Source: a virus. From it: DNA of 30,267 nucleotides. The notes under the pieces are model-generated. The model made no database searches and was not told the origin of the DNA. It worked only from the letters and a program-made list of their open reading frames with translations. The position numbers and the translations under genes are program-made. The stretch lies in the UHGV virus genome UHGV-0229465, one strand, 5' to 3'. Of the stretch, positions 1 through 30,121 are shown one piece after another; the first letter of the stretch is position 1; each line of letters begins with the position of its first letter.

Positions 1-1
1 A

Positions 2-256
2 AAGTACACGCGCTGGGTTAAGACACAGCCGTGTGCATGTTGTGGAAAGCCCGCTGATGATCCCCACCACCTGATAGGTCACGGTCAGGGTGGAATGGGA
101 ACAAAAGCGCATGACCTTTTTGTGTTGCCTTTGTGCAGAAAGCATCACGACGAGCTGCATGCGGATACCGTGGCATTTGAAGAGAAGTATGGCTCCCAGC
201 TGGAGCTGATATTTCGTTTTATCGATCGTGCGCTGGCAATTGGCGTATTGGCGTAA
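2..256 (+). CDS. Phage protein, C-terminal fragment with Cys/His motif (CxCC...HH...C..HH..H); possibly DUF968-like
   Basis: ORF open from window edge to TAA at 254-256; sits immediately upstream of Q as in lambdoid nin regions. Family assignment is from memory only. Confidence 0.45.
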   Translation, partial: KYTRWVKTQPCACCGKPADDPHHLIGHGQGGMGTKAHDLFVLPLCRKHHDELHADTVAFEEKYGSQLELIFRFIDRALAIGVLA

Positions 257-269
257 GTGGAGAACGAGC

Positions 270-1022
270 ATGAACCTTGAAGCCTTACCAAAATATTACT
301 CCCCAAAATCTCCAAAATTGAGCGATGACGCACCGGCGACAGGCTCTGGTGGTTTAACAATTACGGATGTAATGGCTGCGCAGGGGATGGTGCAGTCGAA
401 AGCACCGCTTGGGTTTGCCTTATTCCTGGCAAAAGTTGGTGTTCAGGATCCTCAGTTTGCGATTGAAGGTCTGCTCAATTACGCGATGGCACTGGATAAC
501 CCGACATTGAACAAATTGAGTGAAGAAACCCGGCTACAGATCATTCCTTACCTTGTGAATTTTGCCTTTGCTGATTATTCCAGGTCTGCGGCAAGTAAGG
601 CTCGCTGTGAGCATTGTGCTGGTACTGGATTTCATGATGTATTGCGCGAGGTGGTGAAACACTCCAGAAGCGGGGAATCTGTTATCAAGGAAGAGTGGGG
701 GAAGGAACTATGTCAGCATTGTCATGGTAAGGGAGAAGTCAGCACAGCGTGCAGAGGGTGTAAGGGTAAAGGTATTGTCCTGGATGAAAAAAGAACCCGG
801 CTTCATGGCACGCCTGTTTATAAGATTTGTGGGCGTTGCAATGGAAACCGGTTTAGCCGTTTACCAACCACACTGGCGCGGAATCATGTCCAGAAGCTGG
901 TAGCGGACCTGACTGATTATCAGTGGTACAAAGGATATGCAAATGTCATTGATAAACTGGTGACAAAGTGCTGGCAGGAGGAATCTTACGCTGAAGCACA
1001 ATTGAGAAAGGTGACGAGATAA
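270..1022 (+). CDS. Q: Late-gene antitermination protein Q (phage 21 / 933W type)
   Basis: ATG at 270 with GGAG 8 nt upstream; translation MNLEALPKYYSPKSPKLSDDAPATG... with CxxC...CxxC zinc motifs closely matches recalled Q21-family sequence; positioned just upstream of late promoter and lysis genes. Confidence 0.85.
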   Translation: MNLEALPKYYSPKSPKLSDDAPATGSGGLTITDVMAAQGMVQSKAPLGFALFLAKVGVQDPQFAIEGLLNYAMALDNPTLNKLSEETRLQIIPYLVNFAFADYSRSAASKARCEHCAGTGFHDVLREVVKHSRSGESVIKEEWGKELCQHCHGKGEVSTACRGCKGKGIVLDEKRTRLHGTPVYKICGRCNGNRFSRLPTTLARNHVQKLVADLTDYQWYKGYANVIDKLVTKCWQEESYAEAQLRKVTR

Positions 1023-1053
1023 GTAATTTTCGCCGAAGATGGCGACATGATGC

Positions 1054-1082
1054 TTGCATTTTTCAAAAAATATGGTTAGGAT
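1054..1082 (+). promoter_or_regulatory. Candidate late promoter (pR' analogue): -35 TTGCAT 1054-1059, 17-bp spacer, -10 TAGGAT 1077-1082
   Basis: Sigma70-like hexamers with correct spacing directly downstream of Q; expected Q-utilisation region. Not verified. Confidence 0.35.
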
Positions 1083-1128
1083 TTCCCTAACGATGGGCTT
1101 TGTGTGTCTACCGTTGATAATCTTCAAG

Positions 1129-1152
1129 AAACCGCCACCGAGCGGTTTTTTA
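1129..1152 (+). terminator. Intrinsic terminator (tR' analogue) downstream of candidate late promoter
   Basis: Hairpin aaccgc/gcggtt followed by a T-run (1148-1151). Confidence 0.5.
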
Positions 1153-1310
1153 TTGATGTCAATTGTGTTTTTAAGGCTCTCCTTCCTTAAAGTGTGTTGT
1201 ACAAAAAACTGGCAGCCAGCTACGCTCATTTTGAAAAAGTGACACCCTTCAATGTTTCTTTTGAATGGAATTGCTACCCATAAATCTCTATCAAAAACAG
1301 GAGAGCATAT

Positions 1311-1553
1311 ATGGTGGAGCGTTGTTCTGTTTGTGAGCAGTCATTAAGTTATTCACGAGAAGTTGAACAAGATGGCGTTGAATATAAATCTTGCCCAAAA
1401 TGTTCTGCTGATGCCGGAGTGCACGTTTTTTATAAAACAATAGACTTTGGTTATAGGGATATGGGAGACGGCAGACATATCGTTCAGTCATGGTGTCCGG
1501 CTTGCCGTTCTGGTGAAAAACCTTCTATACCACCAGCATTTAAATGTTGTTAA
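1311..1553 (+). CDS. Small zinc-ribbon-like protein, function unknown
   Basis: 80-aa ORF with AGGAG RBS; three CxxC pairs plus terminal CC; first ORF of the late operon. Confidence 0.6.
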   Translation: MVERCSVCEQSLSYSREVEQDGVEYKSCPKCSADAGVHVFYKTIDFGYRDMGDGRHIVQSWCPACRSGEKPSIPPAFKCC

Positions 1554-1572
1554 CTCAATGAATTATAAAAAG

Positions 1573-1598
1573 AGGCTGCCTGTGGGCGGCCTTTTTTG
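1573..1598 (+). terminator. Putative intrinsic terminator/attenuator after the zinc-ribbon ORF
   Basis: Hairpin aggctgcc-tgtg-ggcggcct (one mismatch) followed by TTTTTT. Confidence 0.4.
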
Positions 1599-1684
1599 TG
1601 CACTACGCATCTTTTGCGACTCAACGCTATAACCAGCTTCTTCCCCTTCACTCGTTGCACTTCCGATAACCGGAGGTGGGAATT

Positions 1685-2026
1685 ATGAAAATGCATAACG
1701 ATCCTCATTCTTGGTCTGACTTACTTGAATTGTTACAGAGCTGGTGGCGTGGAGACACACCGCTGGGCGCAGTAATTATGTCGATCGTTATGGCTGGCTT
1801 GCGCATTGCCTATTTTGGCGGTGGTGGTGGCTGGAAGCGAAAAACGCTCGAGATTTTGCTCTGTGGCGCTCTGACTCTGACTTTTGCATCCGCTCTTGAG
1901 TATGTCGGATGGCCTAAATCTCTTTCTGTTGCCATTGGTGGCGGCGTTGGGCTGATCGGGGTCGATGCTATTCGTGGGGCTGCAATGCGAGTAATCGGTA
2001 ACAAATTTGGTAGCTCGAAGGAGTAA
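1685..2026 (+). CDS. Holin, class I-like (three predicted TM segments), dual-start motif
   Basis: GGAGG RBS then ATG AAA ATG (Met-Lys-Met, as in lambda S105/S107); three hydrophobic segments; immediately upstream of endolysin. Confidence 0.75.
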   Translation: MKMHNDPHSWSDLLELLQSWWRGDTPLGAVIMSIVMAGLRIAYFGGGGGWKRKTLEILLCGALTLTFASALEYVGWPKSLSVAIGGGVGLIGVDAIRGAAMRVIGNKFGSSKE

Positions 2027-2029
2027 TTT

Positions 2030-2506
2030 ATGCAGGAACTAAATCCTCAGCGTAAAGCTTTCCTTGATATGGTGGCCTGGTCAGAAGGAACGGATAACGG
2101 ACGACAACCGACACGTAACCACGGTTATGACGTTATTGTCGGTGGCGAACTGTTCACTGATTACTCCGATCACCCTCGCAAACTTGTCACGCTAAACCCC
2201 AAACTCAAATCAACAGCCGCCGGACGTTACCAGCTTCTTTCACGCTGGTGGGATGCTTACCGTAAACAGCTTGGCCTGAAAGACTTCTCCCCCAAAAGTC
2301 AGGACGCTGTTGCACTGCAGCAGATTAAAGAGCGCGGCGCTTTACCGATGATTGATCGCGGTGATATCCGTCAGGCTATCGACCGCTGCAGCAATATCTG
2401 GGCTTCACTGCCGGGCGCTGGTTATGGTCAGTTCGAGCATAAAGTTGACAGACTGATTGCAAAATTCAAAGACGCAGGCGGAACGGTTAGAGAGATTGAG
2501 GTATGA
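2030..2506 (+). CDS. R: Endolysin, lambda R-type lytic transglycosylase
   Basis: Translation (..[54 protein letters not shown]..) is near-identical to recalled lambda R. Confidence 0.9.
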
Positions 2507-2970
2507 GCAGAGTAACCGCGATTATCTCCGCTCTGGTTATCTGCATCATCGTCTGCCTGTCATGGGCAGTTAATCATTACCGTGATAATGCAATCGCCTA
2601 CAAAGAACAGCGCGATAAAAAAGTCAGTGAGCTGAAGCAGGCGACTGCCACCATTACTGACATGCAGCAGCGTCAGCGTACTGCTGATGCACTCGATGCT
2701 AAATACACGAAGGAGTTAGCTGATGCGAAAGCTGAAAATGATGCTCTTCGGCGCAAGCTTGATGATGGTGGCAGGGTGCTCGTCAAAGGAAAATCCCCTG
2801 TGCCATCCTCAGCCGAAACCTCCAGCGCCTCCGGCATGGGCAATGATGCCACCGTCGAACTCTCTCCAAGTGCTGGACGAAACGTTCTCGGTATCCGGGA
2901 CGGAATTATCCGCGACCAAACAGCACTGAGAGCGCTTCAGGAATACATTAGGACGCAATGCCTTCGATGA
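2503..2970 (+). CDS. Rz: Rz i-spanin (inner-membrane spanin)
   Basis: N-terminal TM segment [31 protein letters not shown] matches recalled lambda Rz; start overlaps endolysin stop. Confidence 0.85.
2723..2929 (+). CDS. Rz1: Rz1 o-spanin lipoprotein, embedded in the +1 frame of Rz
   Basis: [19 protein letters not shown] lipobox and proline-rich PPAPPAW; lies entirely inside Rz as in lambda. Confidence 0.8.
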
Positions 2971-3110
2971 TAGCGATAATTTTACTCATCATCCTTCACA
3001 TCTGGCTCTGTAGACAGGGTGGTGCTCACTTCTGGAGTGAATCCAGATTAAATATCTCATTGCTGATGCTTGAAGTTGAGCATATGGCGCGCGGTAAGGG
3101 GCTGCGTTGA
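2967..3110 (+). CDS. Possible small hydrophobic peptide (47 aa), translationally coupled to Rz
   Basis: ATG overlaps the Rz stop (ATGA); N-terminal hydrophobic helix [14 protein letters not shown]. Below the ORF-track cutoff; weak evidence. Confidence 0.25.
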
Positions 3111-3145
3111 GATAAGATCCAGTTCATTACAAATACCAGGATTTA

Positions 3146-3170
3146 GCCTCGCATTCGCGGGGCTTTTTTA
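3146..3170 (+). terminator. Putative intrinsic terminator after the lysis cassette
   Basis: Hairpin gcctcgc-attc-gcggggc followed by TTTTTT. Confidence 0.45.
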
Positions 3171-3312
3171 TATCTGAATTCACAGCGCATCTCACGCGCA
3201 TATAAACGAGAGCCTTTCAGTAAGCGAGCCTGAGAAATGCCGTTATAGGTGGCGACCTCTCTCGGGCGGCTTTTCTGTGAGACAGGCTCACTTTCTAAAA
3301 GGTAAAGACGCT

Positions 3313-5607: not shown

Positions 5608-6102
5608 ATGGCTGGAACGGCGGGGCGTTCCGGGCGTCGCCCCAAGCCAACGGCGCGCAAGGCGCTGGCCGGAAACCCCGGCAAGCGAGCCCTGAACAAA
5701 GATGAACCTGTTTTTACGCCCATCAAAGGCGTTGAGCCACCGGAGTGGTTCGCAGAAGAAAATCTCCCTCTCGCCACGATCATGTGGCAACTGACAACCA
5801 AAGAACTCTGCGGTCAGGGCCTGCTGTGCGTGACTGACCTCGCGGTGCTTGAGCGGTGGTGCGTAGCCTATGAGTTCTGGCGACGTGCCGTGAAAAATAT
5901 TGCCAGCCAGGGCAACACCATCACCGGTGCAATGGGCGGTATGGTCAAAAATCCGGAGCTGACCGCCAAGAAAGAACAGGAGTCCGAGATGAGCAGCACG
6001 GGGGCAATGCTCGGACTCGACCCCAGCAGCCGCCAGCGTCTGATTGGCCTGGCGGGGCAGAAGAAAGCCACTAACCCGTTTCTGAAAATTATCGAATCAT
6101 GA
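5608..6102 (+). CDS. Terminase small subunit (P27-like family)
   Basis: AGGAG RBS, ATG at 5608; basic N-terminus [27 protein letters not shown] typical of this family; stop overlaps terL start. Confidence 0.8.
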
Positions 6103-7832
6103 GCCGGAAATCTTACCCCAACGTAAATGCTGCCAATCAGTATGCCCGGGATGTCGTGCGCGGAAAGATTGTGGCCTGCCAGTTTGTGATTCAGGCCTGC
6201 CAGCGCCATCTTGATGACCTGATGGCGGAAAAAAGTAAGTCGTTTCGTTACCGCTTCGACAAGGACCTGGCTGAACGGGCCGCCAAATTTATTCAGCTGT
6301 TGCCGCACACCAAGGGTGAGTGGGCATTTAAGAGGATGCCCATCACGCTGGAGCCGTGGCAGCTCTTTGTGATCTGCTGCGCGTTTGGCTGGGTCAATAA
6401 AGGCTCCCGGCTGCGTCGCTTCCGTGAGGTGTATACCGAAATCCCCCGTAAGAACGGCAAATCGGCAATCTCTGCCGGTGTCGCCCTGTATTGTTTTGCC
6501 TGTGATAACGAGTTCGGCGCGGAAGTGTATTCCGGTGCCACGACGGAGAAACAGGCATGGGAAGTCTTTCGTCCGGCAAGACTGATGTGTAAACGCACAC
6601 CCATGCTGACGGAAGCGTTCGGGATTGAGGTTAACGCCTCAAACATGAACCGTCCGGAGGATGGTGCGCGTTTTGAACCGCTGATCGGTAACCCCGGTGA
6701 TGGTTCATCACCCCACTGTGCGGTGGTGGATGAATATCACGAGCACGCCACAGATGCGCTTTACACCACGATGCTTACCGGGATGGGGGCGCGACGTCAG
6801 CCACTGATGTGGGCTATCACTACCGCCGGGTACAACATTGAGGGGCCGTGCTACGACAAACGGCGGGAAGTCATCGAGATGCTCAACGGCTCGGTGCCTA
6901 ACGATGAACTGTTCGGGATCATCTATACCGTTGATGAAGGTGACGACTGGACCGACCCGCAGGTGCTGGAAAAAGCCAATCCAAATATTGGCGTGTCGGT
7001 TTATCGCGAATTTTTGTTAAGTCAGCAGCAGCGTGCGAAAAATAACGCCCGTCTGGCAAACGTCTTTAAAACAAAACACCTCAATATCTGGGTGTCGGCG
7101 CGTTCGGCGTATTTCAATCTGGTGAGCTGGCAGAGCTGCGAGGATAAATCATTGACCATTGAGCAGTTCGAGGGGCAACCGTGCATTCTGGCCTTTGACC
7201 TGGCGCGTAAGCTGGATATGAACAGTATGGCGCGACTTTATACCCGCGAGATTGACGGTAAAACGCATTACTACAGTGTGGCTCCGCGCTTCTGGGTACC
7301 GTATGACACGGTGTACAGCGTCGAGAAAAATGAAGATCGCCGGACAGCCGAACGCTTTCAGAAATGGGTGGAAATGGGCGTTCTGACCGTTACCGCTGGT
7401 GCGGAGGTGGATTATCGCTACATCCTCGAGGAGGCCAAAGCGGCGAACAAAATCAGTCCGGTCAGTGAGTCACCCATCGACCCCTTCGGGGCGACCGGGT
7501 TGTCACATGACCTTGCTGATGAAGACCTGAACCCCATCACTATCATTCAGAACTACACCAACATGTCCGACCCGATGAAAGAGCTGGAAGCGGCAATTGA
7601 ATCGGGGCGCTTTCATCATGATGGCAATCCCATCATGACCTGGTGTATCGGCAACGTGGTCGGCAAAACCATTCCGGGTAACGATGATGTGGTGAAGCCC
7701 GTCAAAGAGCAGGCGGAAAACAAAATTGACGGTGCAGTTGCGCTGATTATGGCGGTTGGCAGAGCCATGCTGTACGAGAAAGAAGACACGCTGCCTGACC
7801 ACATTGAGTCCTATGGGATCCGCTCGCTTTAA
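6099..7832 (+). CDS. Terminase large subunit
   Basis: 577-aa ORF between terS and portal; ATPase and nuclease-domain character; position and size. Confidence 0.85.
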
Positions 7833-17392: not shown

Positions 17393-17491
17393 TGTACAAA
17401 ATGATTAATGTGTTTTTGTCTGGCATAATTTGGGTTTTCAACTTTAAGTAGTTAATATAATCACTCCTTACAAATGATTGAAGGGATGATT

Positions 17492-17986
17492 ATGCGTATC
17501 TTTGTGTTTTTTATATCTGCACTTTTATCTTTTAACTTGGCAGCGGAAGAGTGTAAGTTCAGCTTTAATGAGTCAGAATTAATCTCTTCTATAGGTATTG
17601 CACCAGTTAAGCAAGAGATAGTAAAGGATGAAGGAATAACTAAGCGTCAATATGAATTCAGGAGAGAATTGTCTTTTGAAGAAATGCTTGGCGATGATGC
17701 TGATGAAAAATATGAGCCGCAGTTTTATATATCTGTTTATAATCCATCATGTCCACAAAAGGTTATTATTTGGTTTTTCAAAGACAATAAAAACACACAA
17801 GCTTTAAGTAATGAGGTCCTTGCTGGTAGAGCATTCAAGTATTTAACTGGTGTTAATGAAAGTATTTTTGAAAATAAAATGAAAAAGTTTTCAAAGGTAC
17901 AGTCATTTGAATCCTTTGATGAAAGGACGGACTCTAAATTTATAAAGAGTGGTAATGTTTATTCCATTGATGTTCAACTCAGATAG
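17492..17986 (+). CDS. Secreted hypothetical protein (signal peptide), AT-rich moron inside the tail cluster
   Basis: AAGGGA RBS 6 nt upstream of ATG at 17492 (track start 17474); signal peptide MRIFVFFISALLSFNLA; very low GC; TATAAT -10 element upstream; T-rich hairpin region downstream. Confidence 0.55.
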   Translation: MRIFVFFISALLSFNLAAEECKFSFNESELISSIGIAPVKQEIVKDEGITKRQYEFRRELSFEEMLGDDADEKYEPQFYISVYNPSCPQKVIIWFFKDNKNTQALSNEVLAGRAFKYLTGVNESIFENKMKKFSKVQSFESFDERTDSKFIKSGNVYSIDVQLR

Positions 17987-18076
17987 TAATTGAAAATATT
18001 AGAACCCCGCTACATCTTCTGCGATGTAAATAACTGACAAAGCAGATTTGGCGGGTTTTTTGTATCCGGAGTTTAT

Positions 18077-24733: not shown

Positions 24734-25266
24734 TATGCAGCCCTCACAATATAGTTAAAAGCGACATTTCGTGGGCGTGTTTCATTCGCACCTGCAGGTT
24801 TAGTCGTTGCCGCAACAACACCACCCTCTGTAATAGCCGGGTTGGGAATTGGGTAATTATCGAAGTCAATGGCTGGAGACAGGGGCGTGATTTGTTTTAA
24901 AATCGTGGTGCCTGTAAAACTTCCCAGAGTCTGGTCGTTAGTTCGTGAAGTCCAGATTCCCCAATAGTGGTTATGACTGACAATCGCACCGTCCTGAAGC
25001 GTTAATAATCCCCTTCCGTTATCCACTCCACGTCCGTCATCCCAGCCACGAATAAACTCACCGCGTAAATCAGGTAATTTATTTGTCGGATAAGCCTTTG
25101 CCAGTTCCGGGTATTCTTCAGCAGAAAAAGCTGCTCCGTTGCATTTCAGCCAGCCTGTTGGCGGAGTGGCTGAAGGCCACGGAACAGGCACACCAACGGG
25201 TAATGCTGAGCCTTCTCCCAAACCAACGTTTATGAAAATGTAGAAATAACGAGCAAATGGCATCAT
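24733..25266 (-). CDS. Alternative tail-fibre variable C-terminal cassette (Sv'), silent in current orientation
   Basis: - strand ORF with receptor-binding-tip motifs (..LPDLRGEFIRGWDDGRGVDNGRG..); its 5' end contains the right crossover site encoding ..INVGLGEG.., in frame with the constant fibre part after inversion. Confidence 0.7.
   Translation of the reverse strand: MMPFARYFYIFINVGLGEGSALPVGVPVPWPSATPPTGWLKCNGAAFSAEEYPELAKAYPTNKLPDLRGEFIRGWDDGRGVDNGRGLLTLQDGAIVSHNHYWGIWTSRTNDQTLGSFTGTTILKQITPLSPAIDFDNYPIPNPAITEGGVVAATTKPAGANETRPRNVAFNYIVRAA
25213..25238. repeat. Invertase crossover site, right
   Basis: ttctcccaaaccaacgtttatgaaaa; reverse complement matches the left site over its right half; 55 bp upstream of the invertase start. 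Confidence 0.7.
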
Positions 25267-25292
25267 TCCTGCTTTTGTCAGGGAGATCTACC

Positions 25293-25631
25293 ATGCTTAT
25301 TGGCTATGTACGTGTGTCAACAAATGACCAGAACACAGATCTACAACGTAATGCGCTGAACTGTGCAGGATGCGAGCTGATTTTTGAAGACAAGATAAGC
25401 GGTACAAAGTCCGAAAGGCCTGGACTGAAAAAACTGCTCAGGACATTATCGGCAGGTGATACGCTGGTGGTCTGGAAACTGGACCGACTGGGGCGCAGTA
25501 TGCGGCATCTTGTCGTGCTGGTGGACGAAGATTTAGAGCATGAGTTAATTAATGGCGGTTTGTCCCACTATTGTGGTTGGTATCCCCATAGAACAGGGCA
25601 AGATATAGTTGTTCATCATGTTCACTCATAA
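25293..25631 (+). pseudogene. Serine DNA invertase (Pin/Gin/Hin/Cin family), truncated: catalytic N-terminus only
   Basis: GGGAG RBS; MLIGYVRVSTNDQNTDLQRNAL...LVVWKLDRLGRSM matches recalled Gin/Pin N-terminus with catalytic Ser; similarity is lost after ~residue 85 and the ORF stops at 112 aa (family ~185-190 aa), where AT-rich DNA begins. Confidence 0.7.
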
Positions 25632-26031
25632 GCAGAACTTCGGTGCTTGGCGTTATATTGAACCTTCTGAGGGATTCTGAGGATGAGTGGAATGTCGCGT
25701 TCTGATTCATCAGTAAGTAGGGAAAGATAGACTTTATGCGTCATTGACGGTGAAAGCGGCTATACATAGAAACTACCGACCAGCATCAGCCTGAAAATAT
25801 AGGCAGATAGAAAAAGTGGTCCGCACTTGCAACTAATGTTAAACCGTTTGTAGATATTGTGCTTCGGGTACAATTCTGTCCTATCGTTGCACTTAGCTAA
25901 CTACTCTATATTTAATGCATTGTAATAAAGATATAAAAGTTGTAGTGTTGAGGGTCCAATTGCACATAAGAGTGCAAATTTGAGTTTGGCCGTAGGCTAA
26001 TGATGAGAGTATAAGTTGGATTGGGTGCACT

Positions 26032-27129
26032 ATGAAGAAAAAAATAGCAGATCTACTAGCCGTTAAAACAAATATATTCGAAGTGTTCATTGTTGCGGTA
26101 TTAATTGCCTTGGGCGTAAATATACTGTCATCAGGCGTTGTTGGTTATTTTAACTTGTCATTTTTGAAAATGATTGTTGTTGGTGCGCTACTAATAATTT
26201 TAGGTGCCACAATCTTTCTGCGTAACGCCTATCCTATGAATAATGGGAAATATGATTTTGAGGGGGTTGTGTGTTTAGACAATGAAAAAAAAGAGTTGAT
26301 ATCAATTGAAGGCTACGATTTTTCCGAAGAGGTTAGCCGTTACCTAAAAGGATTATGCGCGGAAAATAAGGCTATTCATAAATCATGGACTGAGGGGCCA
26401 ATTGGTTATGCTTTTGATTTTAAAGGGAAGGGGATAAATAGCAAAAAAATGAAAGCAAATGCACTATTTATCGAGGCGATTGAGTATTATGTTTTAAGAA
26501 AACTTGCTCTTCATTTAAGTAGCTATTTTAATGATGATGAATCTTTTTCCGATGATTATTTGGTTAAACTAGATAGGAAAAGTATTCCTGATGTTCTTAT
26601 GGGGAATAGATTTATTGATACTTTTTCTAGAGCTATGGATGAACGTGAGCAATTTATGGATTATAGTTCTTTACCATCTATAGGTAAAGTTGTATATGCA
26701 TATGGCAATGGAGGCGCAATTTTTGACCATTTTGAAATAGTTCTTCCCAAAAGTAGTTCGCTCACAAGAGAGAGCGACTCTAGTATAAGTATTGTTACTA
26801 AAAGATTTAAGATTAATTATCGCCCTGTGTTCGAGGGATTCGGGGCTAATCTACCAATGAAATTTGGAAATCTTTATTTGGGTAGAGAGTTTAATTCATT
26901 TTCAACTTATTCAGTAGGTTTGGTAGTTACAGTGGATTTTAATGCCAAGTCTTTATTAACAACTAAGGGATGGGAATATTATTGGTGGCTTGATTCGTTT
27001 TTGGGAGAATTGGAACAATCATTTTCTAAAAAAATGTTTTTATCTAAAATATCTTGGGAGCAAAATGCAGCAATGTTTCTTATGCTTGAAAATAAGAGTA
27101 AAATGCAGCACAAGAGAGAGAATTTTTAG
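26032..27129 (+). CDS. Membrane-anchored hypothetical protein (two N-terminal TM helices, ~300-aa cytoplasmic domain)
   Basis: 365-aa ORF in very AT-rich DNA; promoter-like TTGGCC-18 bp-TATAAG upstream; Lys-rich N-terminus then two hydrophobic helices; no recognisable catalytic motif. Confidence 0.6.
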   Translation: MKKKIADLLAVKTNIFEVFIVAVLIALGVNILSSGVVGYFNLSFLKMIVVGALLIILGATIFLRNAYPMNNGKYDFEGVVCLDNEKKELISIEGYDFSEEVSRYLKGLCAENKAIHKSWTEGPIGYAFDFKGKGINSKKMKANALFIEAIEYYVLRKLALHLSSYFNDDESFSDDYLVKLDRKSIPDVLMGNRFIDTFSRAMDEREQFMDYSSLPSIGKVVYAYGNGGAIFDHFEIVLPKSSSLTRESDSSISIVTKRFKINYRPVFEGFGANLPMKFGNLYLGREFNSFSTYSVGLVVTVDFNAKSLLTTKGWEYYWWLDSFLGELEQSFSKKMFLSKISWEQNAAMFLMLENKSKMQHKRENF

Positions 27130-28074
27130 ACAAATAAAAGCAGTCTAAATATCTACATACAGGAAAATGTTCGCATCTGTCTAATGGTGAACAATAGTGG
27201 CTGTAAAAGCTGTAATTTGGGTTCGCTATGTGCTGCATGCATCGGTTGGGCTCACTGCTTATAACAGACATTAATTTTATGACAGAAAGACATTCATGCT
27301 AGTTGGAATATGCATAAAACTCCCTCTACACTGTGTTTGTATACAGTATTATTTTACTGTGCAAATAAGCAGCATTATTGTTTTCTCTGTTCAAGTAAAA
27401 AGAAATGGATACACTCACAAAGATTTTGATGGTGGCACGATAAGTGTCTTCGTTTTTATGAGAGCAGTTGTTGTGGCTTCATCACTAGTACTTAGCATCA
27501 AGACTGATTTCTTGCTGTTGGTTCAAGTACTTTATCCCATAAAAGCCCACATCTGTGGGCTTTCAAGTCACTAGGGCACCGCGGCTCCTTTGCGTATCTT
27601 TTTTTGTATCCTCACCGTCTGGTCGGTGTCCTGCTTTGGCTGCTAACTTGCTGTTTTTGTTGGAATTATCCTTACGCCACCCAATCATGATTGGTGGAGC
27701 TGGCGGGAGTTGAAACCGCAGGCACGTCGTATGCAAGAACGTGCTGCGGTTGGCTGGTGAACTTCCAATAGTGCGAGTATTGAATGATTTCCAGCTGTTA
27801 TAGATTTTACGTATTTTTTGTATGAGAGGATTTGCATCTCCTCCCACCGATCCTCCATGACTTTACTCCACTGTCTATAGGGCTGCTGTGTGCTAGAAAC
27901 GGACATTTTGGTCAACTGAGGGCATGGAAACTTGTTCAATAAATAACGTATAATCAATTGAAAATAAAATGAAATAATTGTAATATCAAAATTCAAAGCC
28001 CGTAGTGAGTATGATTATCTATTCTTAATTTCAACCTCTTAATTCTAAATAAGTTAGACAAATCGGAATGGCAG

Positions 28075-28716
28075 ATGAAAATTAAGTTAACACCAATCTG
28101 GTTATGGATAAAACAATATCAACATCCCCTTAGAGTATTGGGGGGGATTTTTTTCGGGGCCGCTTTGATAGCAGCTTTTTTTTGGATATCAGGATTTGAT
28201 ATAGAACCTATCGCATTCGCTCTGGGAATGCTTAGTTCATTGTTCTTAGCCAGCCCATCGGTAGCAGAATATTTTTTACCAGAACGTAAACCTGTCAGAG
28301 ATATGACATATGAGGAAATCTTAAATTTCATACCCAAAACTGAACCATCTCAAGATTGGCATGGGATTTCAAGGGAATGGGCTAGCGAACGATTCCTTAA
28401 AGAAGACCCACGTCTTCGTTTTCGAGCCAAGTTCATTGATGAAGGAATTCAATGTGAAAATTTTATAGAAGATTGGGCTAACAATCATCCAGATCCCAGA
28501 GCAACTGGATATTGGTATGAGCTTTATTACGACGGAGCATTCCTAGACAGGTTTTTATTGGTATCTGTGGATGGCGGTAGAGCGGATATTCCTCCACCAA
28601 AATTACAAACTAAAGAAATTAGCTTACTCAATTATCATGTTGCGAAAATACATGACACCTCTGGCACGTTAGATGAGTATATTAAACGATCTGGTTTAAC
28701 TATTGCAAAAACATAA
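28075..28716 (+). CDS. Membrane-anchored hypothetical protein (two TM helices, ~150-aa C-terminal domain)
   Basis: 213-aa ORF, AT-rich; helices at ~20-40 and ~45-63; convergent with the next gene. Confidence 0.55.
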   Translation: MKIKLTPIWLWIKQYQHPLRVLGGIFFGAALIAAFFWISGFDIEPIAFALGMLSSLFLASPSVAEYFLPERKPVRDMTYEEILNFIPKTEPSQDWHGISREWASERFLKEDPRLRFRAKFIDEGIQCENFIEDWANNHPDPRATGYWYELYYDGAFLDRFLLVSVDGGRADIPPPKLQTKEISLLNYHVAKIHDTSGTLDEYIKRSGLTIAKT

Positions 28717-28788
28717 TAAGTAACTATTCATTTTTGTCCTGAGCGGGAGGATTAAAACCTCCGCTCTCCGATTCATCACTACAGAGTA

Positions 28789-29547
28789 TTAACATTCATG
28801 ATGCTTAATTTCCAGATCGGAAATTGCAATCATTCTTATTTCTTTCAATGCACTATCAATTGCTAATCTTATTCTTTGCCCATAATCATCTGGTTCTTCA
28901 TAATCCAGTGGAGACGGTTCTAAGCCAATATTTTCGACTAACTCCTCTAATTTTATAGTTACATCAGTATTCAAAAGAATTGCTTTTGTTATTAATATTT
29001 CAGTTAACGATATCATTGCAATGCTTAATTTTTGTTGTAATTCTTTGTTTTTAGTTTGGACGTCTTTATCATTCATTGAGTTCTCAATATCTGCTTGAGC
29101 CTGCTGAATTTCTTGGTAAAATTGTTTTTCTTGCTCTTCATTAAAATATGGCTGGTAACTGCTTGCAATCCATCCTGGAATCATATGAAGTTCAATTATA
29201 TGAAATTCATTGTCTGCCCATTTTTTAATTGCTAGCAATTGTGCATAGATGAATTCATACATATCATATTTTTTTTGCCAAATTTGTTGAGAGATCCATA
29301 TCTCAGATGTTATTTTTTTCTCTATATCTTTAATAGTAACTGTGTTTATAGATAATTGTTCCCGTAGGGTTTCGAAGTTAGAATTGGTTGCAGAAATTTT
29401 AGCCCATTCTGTAATTATTGAAACTAGGAAACTCATTGCTAGGGCTGCGATAACTACGGCGAGACTTAACCAGATAATTTCTGCTGTCGAGAAATTTGAT
29501 GACTGTAATGCCTTAATAAGATCAAGCAATTGCTTTTCTGTAAGCAC
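28789..29547 (-). CDS. Membrane-anchored hypothetical protein (one TM helix, helical/coiled-coil C-terminal domain)
   Basis: 252-aa ORF on - strand; GTG start with GGGGAG RBS; one hydrophobic helix near residues 22-46 then Glu/Gln/Lys-rich helical region. Confidence 0.55.
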   Translation of the reverse strand: MLTEKQLLDLIKALQSSNFSTAEIIWLSLAVVIAALAMSFLVSIITEWAKISATNSNFETLREQLSINTVTIKDIEKKITSEIWISQQIWQKKYDMYEFIYAQLLAIKKWADNEFHIIELHMIPGWIASSYQPYFNEEQEKQFYQEIQQAQADIENSMNDKDVQTKNKELQQKLSIAMISLTEILITKAILLNTDVTIKLEELVENIGLEPSPLDYEEPDDYGQRIRLAIDSALKEIRMIAISDLEIKHHEC

Positions 29548-29949
29548 AGGTTACTCCCCAAAAAATATTTGTTATGATTCAATTGATTACGCTAGGTTTT
29601 CTATTGTTCAAACAAAAAATAAAACACCACTGTACACCCATCAAAATTATATGGATAGATTCTTTATAGCAAAATTATGATCTGACAACATGATATGGTT
29701 CGAAGATGTTTTTATGGTAGAAAGGTATGCATGTAGGGTATAGGAGGTCGTGAAAGAAAAGAAGACTTCTGTACAGTTTGTCATCACGTTTATCTTCATC
29801 GGCTATGCAAGTCGTAATACAAGGTGGGACAAAACTGAGACACATAAGGCCTCACAATGGCTTGCAAGGCTTTACATGTTTTGATGTGGTGGGACGTGTG
29901 AGCGCAGTGTTGATGGGGTAATTCTTTGAATTAGAAACGGATTCTTATA

Positions 29950-29995
29950 ATTCGTAATGCGAAGGTCGTAGGTTCGACTCCTATTATCGGCACCA
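29950..29995 (+). other. Partial tRNA-Thr(CGU) (anticodon loop to CCA end) = prophage attachment core, attR
   Basis: attcgtaatgcgaaggtcgtaggttcgactcctattatcggcacca matches the recalled 3' portion of enterobacterial tRNA-Thr (T-arm GGTTCGACTCC, acceptor TATCGGCACCA); the 5' half is absent upstream and GC composition changes here. Confidence 0.75.
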
Positions 29996-30121
29996 TTAAA
30001 ATCAAAGAGTTACCCCATATTTAAATACACCACGTTTCCTCCTGTGCCGCATTTGTGCCATTGTAACCTTGGCAATTCATCAAAATACTGTTCTGACATC
30101 AGGCAGTGCAGGTGCAGCTAT

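Follow-up and report, generated by a model that had tools for sequence, protein, structure and literature searches.

The window analyzed here is the whole 30,267-nt stretch of DNA known as UHGV virus genome UHGV-0229465. It is an e14/SfV-like Escherichia coli prophage integrated at the tRNA gene thrW, with an HK97-type head, a contractile tail, and pin-invertible tail fibers. At one end of the prophage, between a truncated invertase gene (pin) and the right attachment site (attR), lies an island of three open reading frames (ORFs), referred to as ORF1, ORF2, and ORF3. The island is AT-rich, as an earlier interpretation made from the letters of the DNA (the sequence-only reading) had described. 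GC content is 0.32-0.43 across positions 25501-30000 versus 0.52-0.61 in most of the prophage structural region.

The left border of the island is a resolvase-type invertase frame at 25257-25631 (+ strand) that matches Pfam Resolvase at residues 15-91 (E = 3.5e-26). RefSeq annotates this truncated pin as a pinE pseudogene with a missing C-terminus. Homology to the intact pin genes of sibling prophages ends at 25528, and the remainder of the frame is read-through into cassette DNA. The right border is the attR core at 29950-29995 (+ strand), a duplicated 3' part of tRNA-Thr (thrW). The 3' end of thrW is matched exactly over 23 nt at 29973-29995, where the chance expectation is 0, and the identity with thrW presumably starts at 29950. 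There is no intact tRNA in the window. Beyond attR, the flanking E. coli chromosome is that of the yagP (LysR pseudogene)/paoD side. Both borders had been proposed by the sequence-only reading and both hold.

ORF1 (26032-27129, + strand) encodes a protein of 365 amino acids (aa). Two transmembrane (TM) helices at residues ~14-37 and 45-64 (nt 26071-26142 and 26164-26223) form a hairpin, which is followed by a ~300-aa cytoplasmic alpha/beta domain. The AlphaFold2 (AF2) model has a predicted local distance difference test (pLDDT) score of 83.9, and the hairpin is predicted to be N-in/C-in with a periplasmic loop of 7 aa. ORF2 (28075-28716, + strand) encodes 213 aa and is composed of a 2-TM hairpin and a predicted cytoplasmic domain, termed X (AF2 pLDDT 93.4). 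ORF3 (28789-29547, - strand) begins with a GTG codon and encodes 252 aa. Its N-terminus of 22 aa is strictly conserved and precedes one TM helix at residues ~24-46 (nt 29410-29478), after which come ~200 aa of conserved soluble sequence. Hydropathy gives a single hydrophobic helix for ORF3, and charge analysis weakly favors an N-out/C-in orientation. All three ORFs are intact where they had first been placed, and their membrane helices are backed by hydropathy and, for ORF1 and ORF2, by helices in the AF2 models. Purifying selection acts on all three, with nonsynonymous divergence (pN) far under synonymous divergence (pS) in all pairs. The dN/dS ratio is 0.14-0.18 for ORF1 and 0.04-0.13 for ORF3; for ORF2, pN is 0.22-0.26 and pS is saturated. 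All three ORFs are genuine genes.

The interval from pin to attR was compared with the slots of five sibling thrW prophages by local blastn. Three elements are kept in the five siblings: a left flank that ends in pin at 25528, a spacer, and a right flank that starts at 29712. The last of these, the att-proximal phage flank at 29712-29949, is kept in all sibling thrW prophages. The slot is therefore laid out as pin, bay A, conserved spacer, bay B, and attR. Bay A (25529-27540, + strand) holds the ORF1 cassette, which replaced the lost 3' ~240 bp of pin. Bay B (27904-29711) holds ORF2 and ORF3, which are convergently oriented.

The siblings carry different cargo in both bays. In bay A, the cargo is PD-T4-3 (PADLOC E = 2.4e-140) or a full-length type IV methyl-directed restriction enzyme (E = 0); other siblings have a 502-aa hypothetical protein or an empty bay. 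In bay B, one finds a small hypothetical protein with an NsnB/AriA/OLD/GajA-like ATPase (3.8e-31), a 208-aa protein with a DUF4365 protein, or small hypothetical proteins. Constant flanks thus enclose alternative cargo that includes known defense systems. The slot is a genuine prophage defense hotspot because siblings with the same flanks carry PD-T4-3, a type IV restriction enzyme, and an OLD/AriA-like ATPase. The suggestion that this is an att-proximal cargo slot of a thrW-integrated prophage is borne out.

The spacer (27541-27903) is present in every sibling thrW prophage, where ~190-360 bp of it are kept (from 27541 or 27711 to 27903). It is a patchwork of prophage-end sequences. At 27560-27719 (- strand) is an ssrA-like fragment of 85-88% identity, made up of the ~28 last nt of the transfer-messenger RNA gene and ~130 nt of its downstream flank, which is probably the relic of a prophage attachment junction at ssrA. 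The part at 27713-27820 recurs beside the ybhB/att-lambda end of lambdoid prophages, and parts of the spacer recur at lambdoid prophage ends of other integration sites. This patchwork fits an exchange of cargo by recombination between prophage ends. A noncoding RNA was considered for the 945-bp gap between ORF1 and ORF2, where a search of Rfam gave no family and only a sub-threshold match to CssrB. That candidate was rejected, and the gap is accounted for by the spacer and the ssrA-junction relic.

The e14 mcrA slot and the P2/P4-like and lambdoid hotspots are likewise att-proximal, AT-rich, rapidly exchanged, and found beside pin and tail-fiber genes. The restriction enzyme in the sibling slots is of type IV, the same class as McrA. 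The window slot differs from these hotspots in its two bays and in the conserved spacer between them, where an ssrA-junction relic lies. To our knowledge, a two-bay slot with an ssrA-relic spacer has not been described before.

The cargo seen in the siblings bears on whether the three genes have anything to do with defense. They could instead be conversion or fitness genes that act in surface modification, virulence, or stress, or they could be selfish addiction genes. In SfV, the equivalent slot carries the gtr genes, which speaks for conversion cargo. In this exact slot, however, the alternative cargo is defense genes, and searches of Pfam and NCBIfam gave no Gtr, glycosyltransferase, adhesin, or signal-peptide features. 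The three families also reach free-living marine and anaerobic bacteria, and there is no conserved antitoxin-like partner. Cargo of this kind is very unlikely. Serotype conversion of the gtrABV type was rejected, as the proteins have only 1-2 TM helices and no Pfam or NCBIfam match.

The three genes travel separately. Among 5426 complete E. coli genomes, the complete island is found in 6, while ORF1 is found in 12, ORF2 in 7, and ORF3 in 7. A divergent allele of ORF3 (71% identical) occurs in 28 further genomes of this set, including UTI89. ORF1 occurs without ORF2 and ORF3 in six genomes, and the block 25212-27812, ORF1 with the truncated pin, moves as a unit to a prophage at the prfC site. 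Conversely, the block 27624-29997, which spans ORF2, ORF3, and attR, recurs, in one genome, at the end of a lambdoid prophage without ORF1. Outside E. coli, each of the three genes stands alone among unrelated neighbors in the loci examined. Profile comparison gave no shared ancestry among the three proteins, with hhalign probabilities below 0.2%. A local look-alike between ORF1 residues ~218-240 (VVYAYGNGGAIFDHFEIVLPK) and ORF2 residues ~146-168 (YWYELYYDGAFLDRFLLVSVDG), with the common pattern DGAxFDxFxLV, has an hhalign probability of 0.17%; it is not significant and probably arose by chance.

The island is a mosaic in which each gene is a cassette of its own, unrelated to the other two and mobile without them. 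The sequence-only reading had pointed to the island as the best candidate for an undescribed system. A single defense system of three cooperating membrane proteins would fit the adjacency of the genes in 6 complete E. coli genomes and the membrane anchor that all three products have. The separate occurrence of the genes and the lack of profile similarity led us to reject this idea. Each gene occurs without the others, outside E. coli none keeps either partner, ORF2 and ORF3 are convergent, and the two bays are divided by a spacer that siblings conserve with other cargo. A three-gene system is the most improbable of the explanations considered.

No protein of the window island has a family match at a meaningful E-value in Pfam, NCBIfam, or PHROGs, and the literature and the DefensePredictor supplements gave no match to accessions of these genes. 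The absence of a recognized motif, as first described, stands for ORF1 and ORF3 and, within these three databases, for the island as a whole. It does not stand for ORF2, whose soluble domain X is shared with TIR, SEFIR, and SIR2 proteins and with the defense candidate PDC-S50. Profile searches of the three proteins and structure searches of ORF1 and ORF2, of the kind that had been proposed, gave no family or Protein Data Bank (PDB) assignment, and the profile searches yielded this link for ORF2.

The X domain is a ~135-aa alpha+beta module (ORF2 residues 77-213; 28303-28713, + strand) that is delimited by sequence comparisons and the AF2 model and is not in Pfam. It follows the TM hairpin, a predicted membrane effector at residues ~20-38 and 46-67 (28132-28275, + strand), for which AF2 places helices at 16-38 and 44-67. 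In the positive-inside analysis, the ORF2 family has an N-terminal tail with 3.6 Lys plus Arg, an acidic loop of 7 aa, and a basic segment after the second TM helix. Because this charge pattern is that of an N-in/C-in protein, the X domain is modeled as cytoplasmic, as it is in the TIR- and SIR2-fused relatives. Invariant residues of X are W95, D111, R115, W134, D166, and P175.

Homologues of ORF2 form 139 clusters that are >45% identical across Gammaproteobacteria, Desulfobacterota, and Planctomycetota. At eight loci from six genomes their neighbors are unrelated, and they often lie at the edges of mobile elements. Examples are an integrase fragment in Scalindua, a position between transposases in Desulfobacter, the integrase of a Marinomonas prophage, and a locus with a Schlafen/AlbA_2 gene and YoeB-YefM. 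There is no conserved partner; in the six genomes, the downstream genes share no relationship with one another or with ORF3. PDB sequence profiles gave no match to ORF2. Foldseek against the PDB was not significant (best E = 0.74), and several weak NTF2/cystatin-like matches serve as leads only.

PDC-S50 is a single-gene candidate, one of 145 candidates embedded in BREX, DISARM, or type I restriction-modification loci (Payne et al., bioRxiv 10.1101/2024.01.29.577857). The core of its 387-position PADLOC model, at ~184-272, matches 53/53 members of the ORF2 family (best E = 2.6e-8), and positions 184-272 align to ORF2 residues 92-183. This core is homologous to the X domain of ORF2 and to that of its TIR-X relatives. 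In ORF2, with its 213 aa, the 2-TM hairpin takes the place of an N-terminal region that measures ~180 aa in PDC-S50-like proteins and is TIR-like in the relatives scanned. ORF2 was not accepted as a PDC-S50 member; only positions 184-272 of the model match, and what is shared is the domain. ORF2 is best described as a new variant, with a predicted membrane effector, of a domain family that had been marked before as a candidate for defense.

A profile of X was searched against 1.84e9 representatives at E <= 1e-3, and 894 representative clusters were matched. Architectures were counted in the best 150 of the 894 matches. X alone (125-145 aa) accounts for 63 of the 150, at least 29 have a 2-TM hairpin before X, and ~10-14 have one TM helix. 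TIR-like-X proteins number ~19, and there is one SIR2-X protein and one X-X tandem. Pfam found a CAP12/Pycsar-type TIR in 14 of the X relatives, TIR_2 in 3, SEFIR in 2, and SIR2_2 in 1 (E = 3.5e-23). By PADLOC, the TIR domain of one relative (P0362) is SAVED-TIR-like and the SIR2 domain of another (P0268) is LmuA/ThsA-like. The tandem protein (P0255) is 300 aa in length and has two X domains in a row. Another relative, P0118 (356 aa), is a 2TM-X protein with an added C-terminal hydrophobic region.

One SEFIR-fused relative connects X to the family of a validated system. bSEFIR is a single-gene defense with experimental validation (Millman et al. 2022, preprint 10.1101/2022.05.11.491447). The protein P0361 belongs to the bSEFIR family (1.8e-76 against the PADLOC bSEFIR profile) and ends in an X domain that is plainly alignable with that of ORF2 (LVSVDGGRADIPLP...LDEYIKRSKL). 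ORF2 itself was rejected as a bSEFIR protein. It has no SEFIR or TIR match, and only the C-terminal domain is common to both.

Mobilizable MOBP plasmids of 4.8-5.1 kb from Enterobacter and Klebsiella carry stand-alone X genes, and 47 plasmid records match. On the Enterobacter hormaechei plasmid NZ_CP030346.1, the X gene (339-830) is convergent with a helix-turn-helix gene, and the start given in its annotation probably lies too far upstream. In ORF2, X begins with Met77 (codon 28303-28305), which falls where stand-alone X proteins have their start codon. Methionine is found here in ~36/40 divergent 2TM-X representatives and in 53/53 close homologues, whereas TIR- and SIR2-fused proteins have A, P, L, F, I, T, or N. 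Going by this pattern, an internal start at Met77 that would give a soluble X is possible. No Shine-Dalgarno sequence upstream of Met77 is conserved in the three loci compared.

Several known immune proteins resemble ORF2 in their plan. Cap15, PycTM/PycTIR, and the ThsA variants are sensor-effector immune proteins in which one sensor is found with swapped effectors. Cap15 (CBASS), PycTM (Pycsar), TM-Macro ThsA (type II Thoeris), and MisC (type II Metis) each have an N-terminal TM effector and a small cytoplasmic sensor, a role that is presumed for X in ORF2. In this group, too, one and the same sensor can carry a TIR/SIR2-type effector in place of the TM one. MisC has 3 TM helices and no Pfam domain, couples its TM effector to a cytoplasmic nucleotide pocket, and protects alone (bioRxiv 10.1101/2025.11.05.686725). 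ORF2 differs from Cap15, PycTM, and TM-Macro ThsA in having no PADLOC match and no Foldseek PDB match to them.

Membership in each of these systems was rejected. There is no PADLOC match of ORF2 to Cap15 or CBASS effectors at E <= 1 and no significant Foldseek PDB match, which argues against a Cap15/S-2TM-beta protein; a CBASS effector more generally is countered by the lack of a CD-NTase cyclase in the window slot or beside the homologues. For Pycsar PycTM, Pfam cNMP_binding, a PADLOC PycTM match, and a neighboring cyclase are all missing. A type II Thoeris ThsA was discounted on the lack of a Macro or ThsA match and of a TIR gene in the island, and type II Metis, judged by its partner, on the lack of a HAD phosphatase (MisB) gene beside ORF2 or its homologues. 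Overall, no cyclase, ThsB, or MisB-type partner lies beside ORF2 or the eight homologues examined. By analogy, ORF2 may be a relative in mechanism of Cap15, PycTM, ThsA, MisC, and bSEFIR; it is not a member of those families.

One cytoplasmic domain is found with interchangeable TM, TIR, and SIR2 modules. Therefore, X is proposed to sense or gate and the 2-TM hairpin to kill. In ORF2, the cytoplasmic X domain would serve as an infection sensor or regulatory module. On triggering, X would drive the 2-TM hairpin to oligomerize, and the oligomer would breach or depolarize the inner membrane. In the relatives, X would be coupled instead to TIR, SEFIR, or SIR2 effectors that destroy NAD+. We infer that X senses rather than executes and that the TM hairpin kills, as we do any role in defense. 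The sequence-only reading had guessed at abortive infection from the membrane anchors; for ORF2, the guess is strengthened by the sharing of X, and for ORF1 and ORF3 it is context that speaks for it.

The roles of the two parts of ORF2 could also be reversed. X may be the active enzyme or toxin and the TM, TIR, and SIR2 parts accessory. ORF2 would then be an enzyme tethered to the membrane or a protein of the toxin/immunity type. No architecture is commoner than X alone, which is also the sole non-mobilization cargo-type gene on the 4.8-kb MOBP plasmids; the domain also has many invariant polar and aromatic residues (W95, D111, R115, W134, and D166). However, TIR, SEFIR, and SIR2 are complete effectors by themselves in every characterized system. 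A second killing domain beside them is less economical than a sensor, and Pfam, PDB sequence, and Foldseek searches gave X no match to a catalytic family. An executing X domain is considered rather improbable.

ORF1 has homologues in 47 clusters. Its invariant residues are Asn30 in the first TM helix and E111, E148, E151, R182, R193, R205, R246, and D321. One homologue lies beside putAbiC in a Citrobacter prophage remnant, and in Pseudomonas another sits at an integrative-element edge. The 42-member family was negative in Pfam and PADLOC and had no match among PDB sequence profiles. Foldseek against the PDB gave a best E of 0.09, and weak START/helix-grip-like matches are leads only. The label DUF3137, which UniRef gives to some ORF1 homologues, was rejected; Pfam PF11335 is matched by 0/42 members at E <= 1.

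ORF3 has homologues in 54 clusters from Enterobacterales and Aeromonas. One is located at the icd-att end of a Klebsiella prophage, near SRAP, SNIPE/T5orf172, and umuC-like genes. Another is a single-gene insertion in the fdh cluster of Aeromonas, and a third stands behind an unrelated 350-aa gene in E. coli. The allele of the laboratory strain UTI89 (WP_000954672.1, 5001-5759) is 68% identical to ORF3 and lies directly downstream of an unrelated 344-aa hypothetical gene (5858-6892) at the prfC/DinI end of a lambdoid prophage. The PADLOC profile LeoBC gives weak partial matches in 14/26 members of the ORF3 family (best E = 8e-4). ORF3 was nevertheless rejected as Eleos LeoBC, as the window protein gives no match and has no GTPase domain.

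Judged by their slot, their rarity and mobility, and their architecture, ORF1 and ORF3 probably also protect the lysogen, each as a single-gene protein, either by abortive infection or by exclusion. Each of the three proteins would be anchored in the inner membrane, and its soluble domain is predicted to lie on the cytoplasmic side; for ORF3 the prediction is weak. Small inner-membrane exclusion proteins are classically encoded in att-proximal moron slots, and the island genes could encode superinfection-exclusion or entry-blocking proteins like P22 SieA, T4 Imm, and HK97 gp15, which stop incoming phage DNA at the inner membrane with no cell death. This location fits, and nothing in the domain content of ORF1 and ORF3 speaks against it; exclusion is a live alternative for these two. 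Against it, the predicted topology places nearly all of the protein in the cytoplasm and leaves only the 7-aa periplasmic loop in ORF1 and ORF2, and no PHROG exclusion family is matched. The soluble domain of ORF2 is common to cytoplasmic TIR and SIR2 enzymes, and members of its family occur outside prophages in Planctomycetota and Desulfobacterota. As an account of the whole island, exclusion is unlikely.

Taken together, the preferred reading is a variable moron-end hotspot with three independent cassettes, in which ORF2 is a one-protein abortive-infection defense with X as sensor or regulator and ORF1 and ORF3 are further protectors. We give this reading a probability of about 0.6. Several observations weigh against it. 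X alone is the most frequent architecture (63/150), and X may be self-sufficient as an enzyme, toxin, immunity protein, or adaptor. ORF1 and ORF3 have no sequence link to any defense family in the searches run, and ORF1 has no structure link either. Some homologues are in places that are not obviously defensive: that of ORF1 in Serratia stands alone between LacI- and LysR-type regulators, and that of ORF2 in Aeromonas lies between chemoreceptor and cys genes. A search of 50,697 deposited phage genomes recovered none of the three proteins. Finally, PDC-S50 is itself no more than a candidate (10.1101/2024.01.29.577857).

A bolder version would make X a widely distributed, previously undescribed infection-sensor domain wired to at least four interchangeable killing modules, namely a membrane breaker with two TM helices or one, CAP12-type TIR, TIR/SEFIR, and SIR2. 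The proteins would form a new single-protein defense superfamily whose members all respond to the same trigger, which would be a phage protein or a small molecule derived from infection. Stand-alone or Met77-started X would be regulators or decoys, and ORF1 and ORF3 would be two wholly new single-gene membrane defenses. This version is tentative, and we would sooner doubt it than accept it.

The prophage has other variable slots. An AT-rich insert of ~680 bp (17393-18076, GC 0.31) lies between the tape-measure and DNA-circularization genes and contains an ORF at 17474-17986 (+ strand). The encoded protein of 170 aa is annotated as hypothetical, has a signal-peptide-like N-terminus, and is found in 85/5426 E. 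coli genomes. This tail-module insert is a second moron and is absent from the otherwise similar RX24 prophage. In RX24, a DUF262 gene, a HEPN-like nuclease, and a Dcm methyltransferase are found at 27450-30311 between the Q antiterminator and the holin. Collinearity of the window with RX24 over the full length was rejected because the left part differs, as seen in the ORF pattern at 1-3300. Because of this difference, the stretch from the Q antiterminator to the holin counts as a further variable slot in this group of phages; the DUF262/HEPN/Dcm locus is a feature of RX24 and is not claimed for the window.

The two-bay thrW hotspot, defined by its flanks at 25528 and 29712 and by the spacer at 27541-27903, offers a simple route to harvest candidate defense genes from E. 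coli. ORF1 and ORF3 are rare single-gene candidates that are directly testable. If ORF2 works as proposed, X would be a handle on a large unnamed family of 894 clusters that is coupled to membrane, TIR, SEFIR, and SIR2 effectors. In that case, learning what X recognizes would explain the activation of many proteins, including relatives of bSEFIR and PDC-S50.

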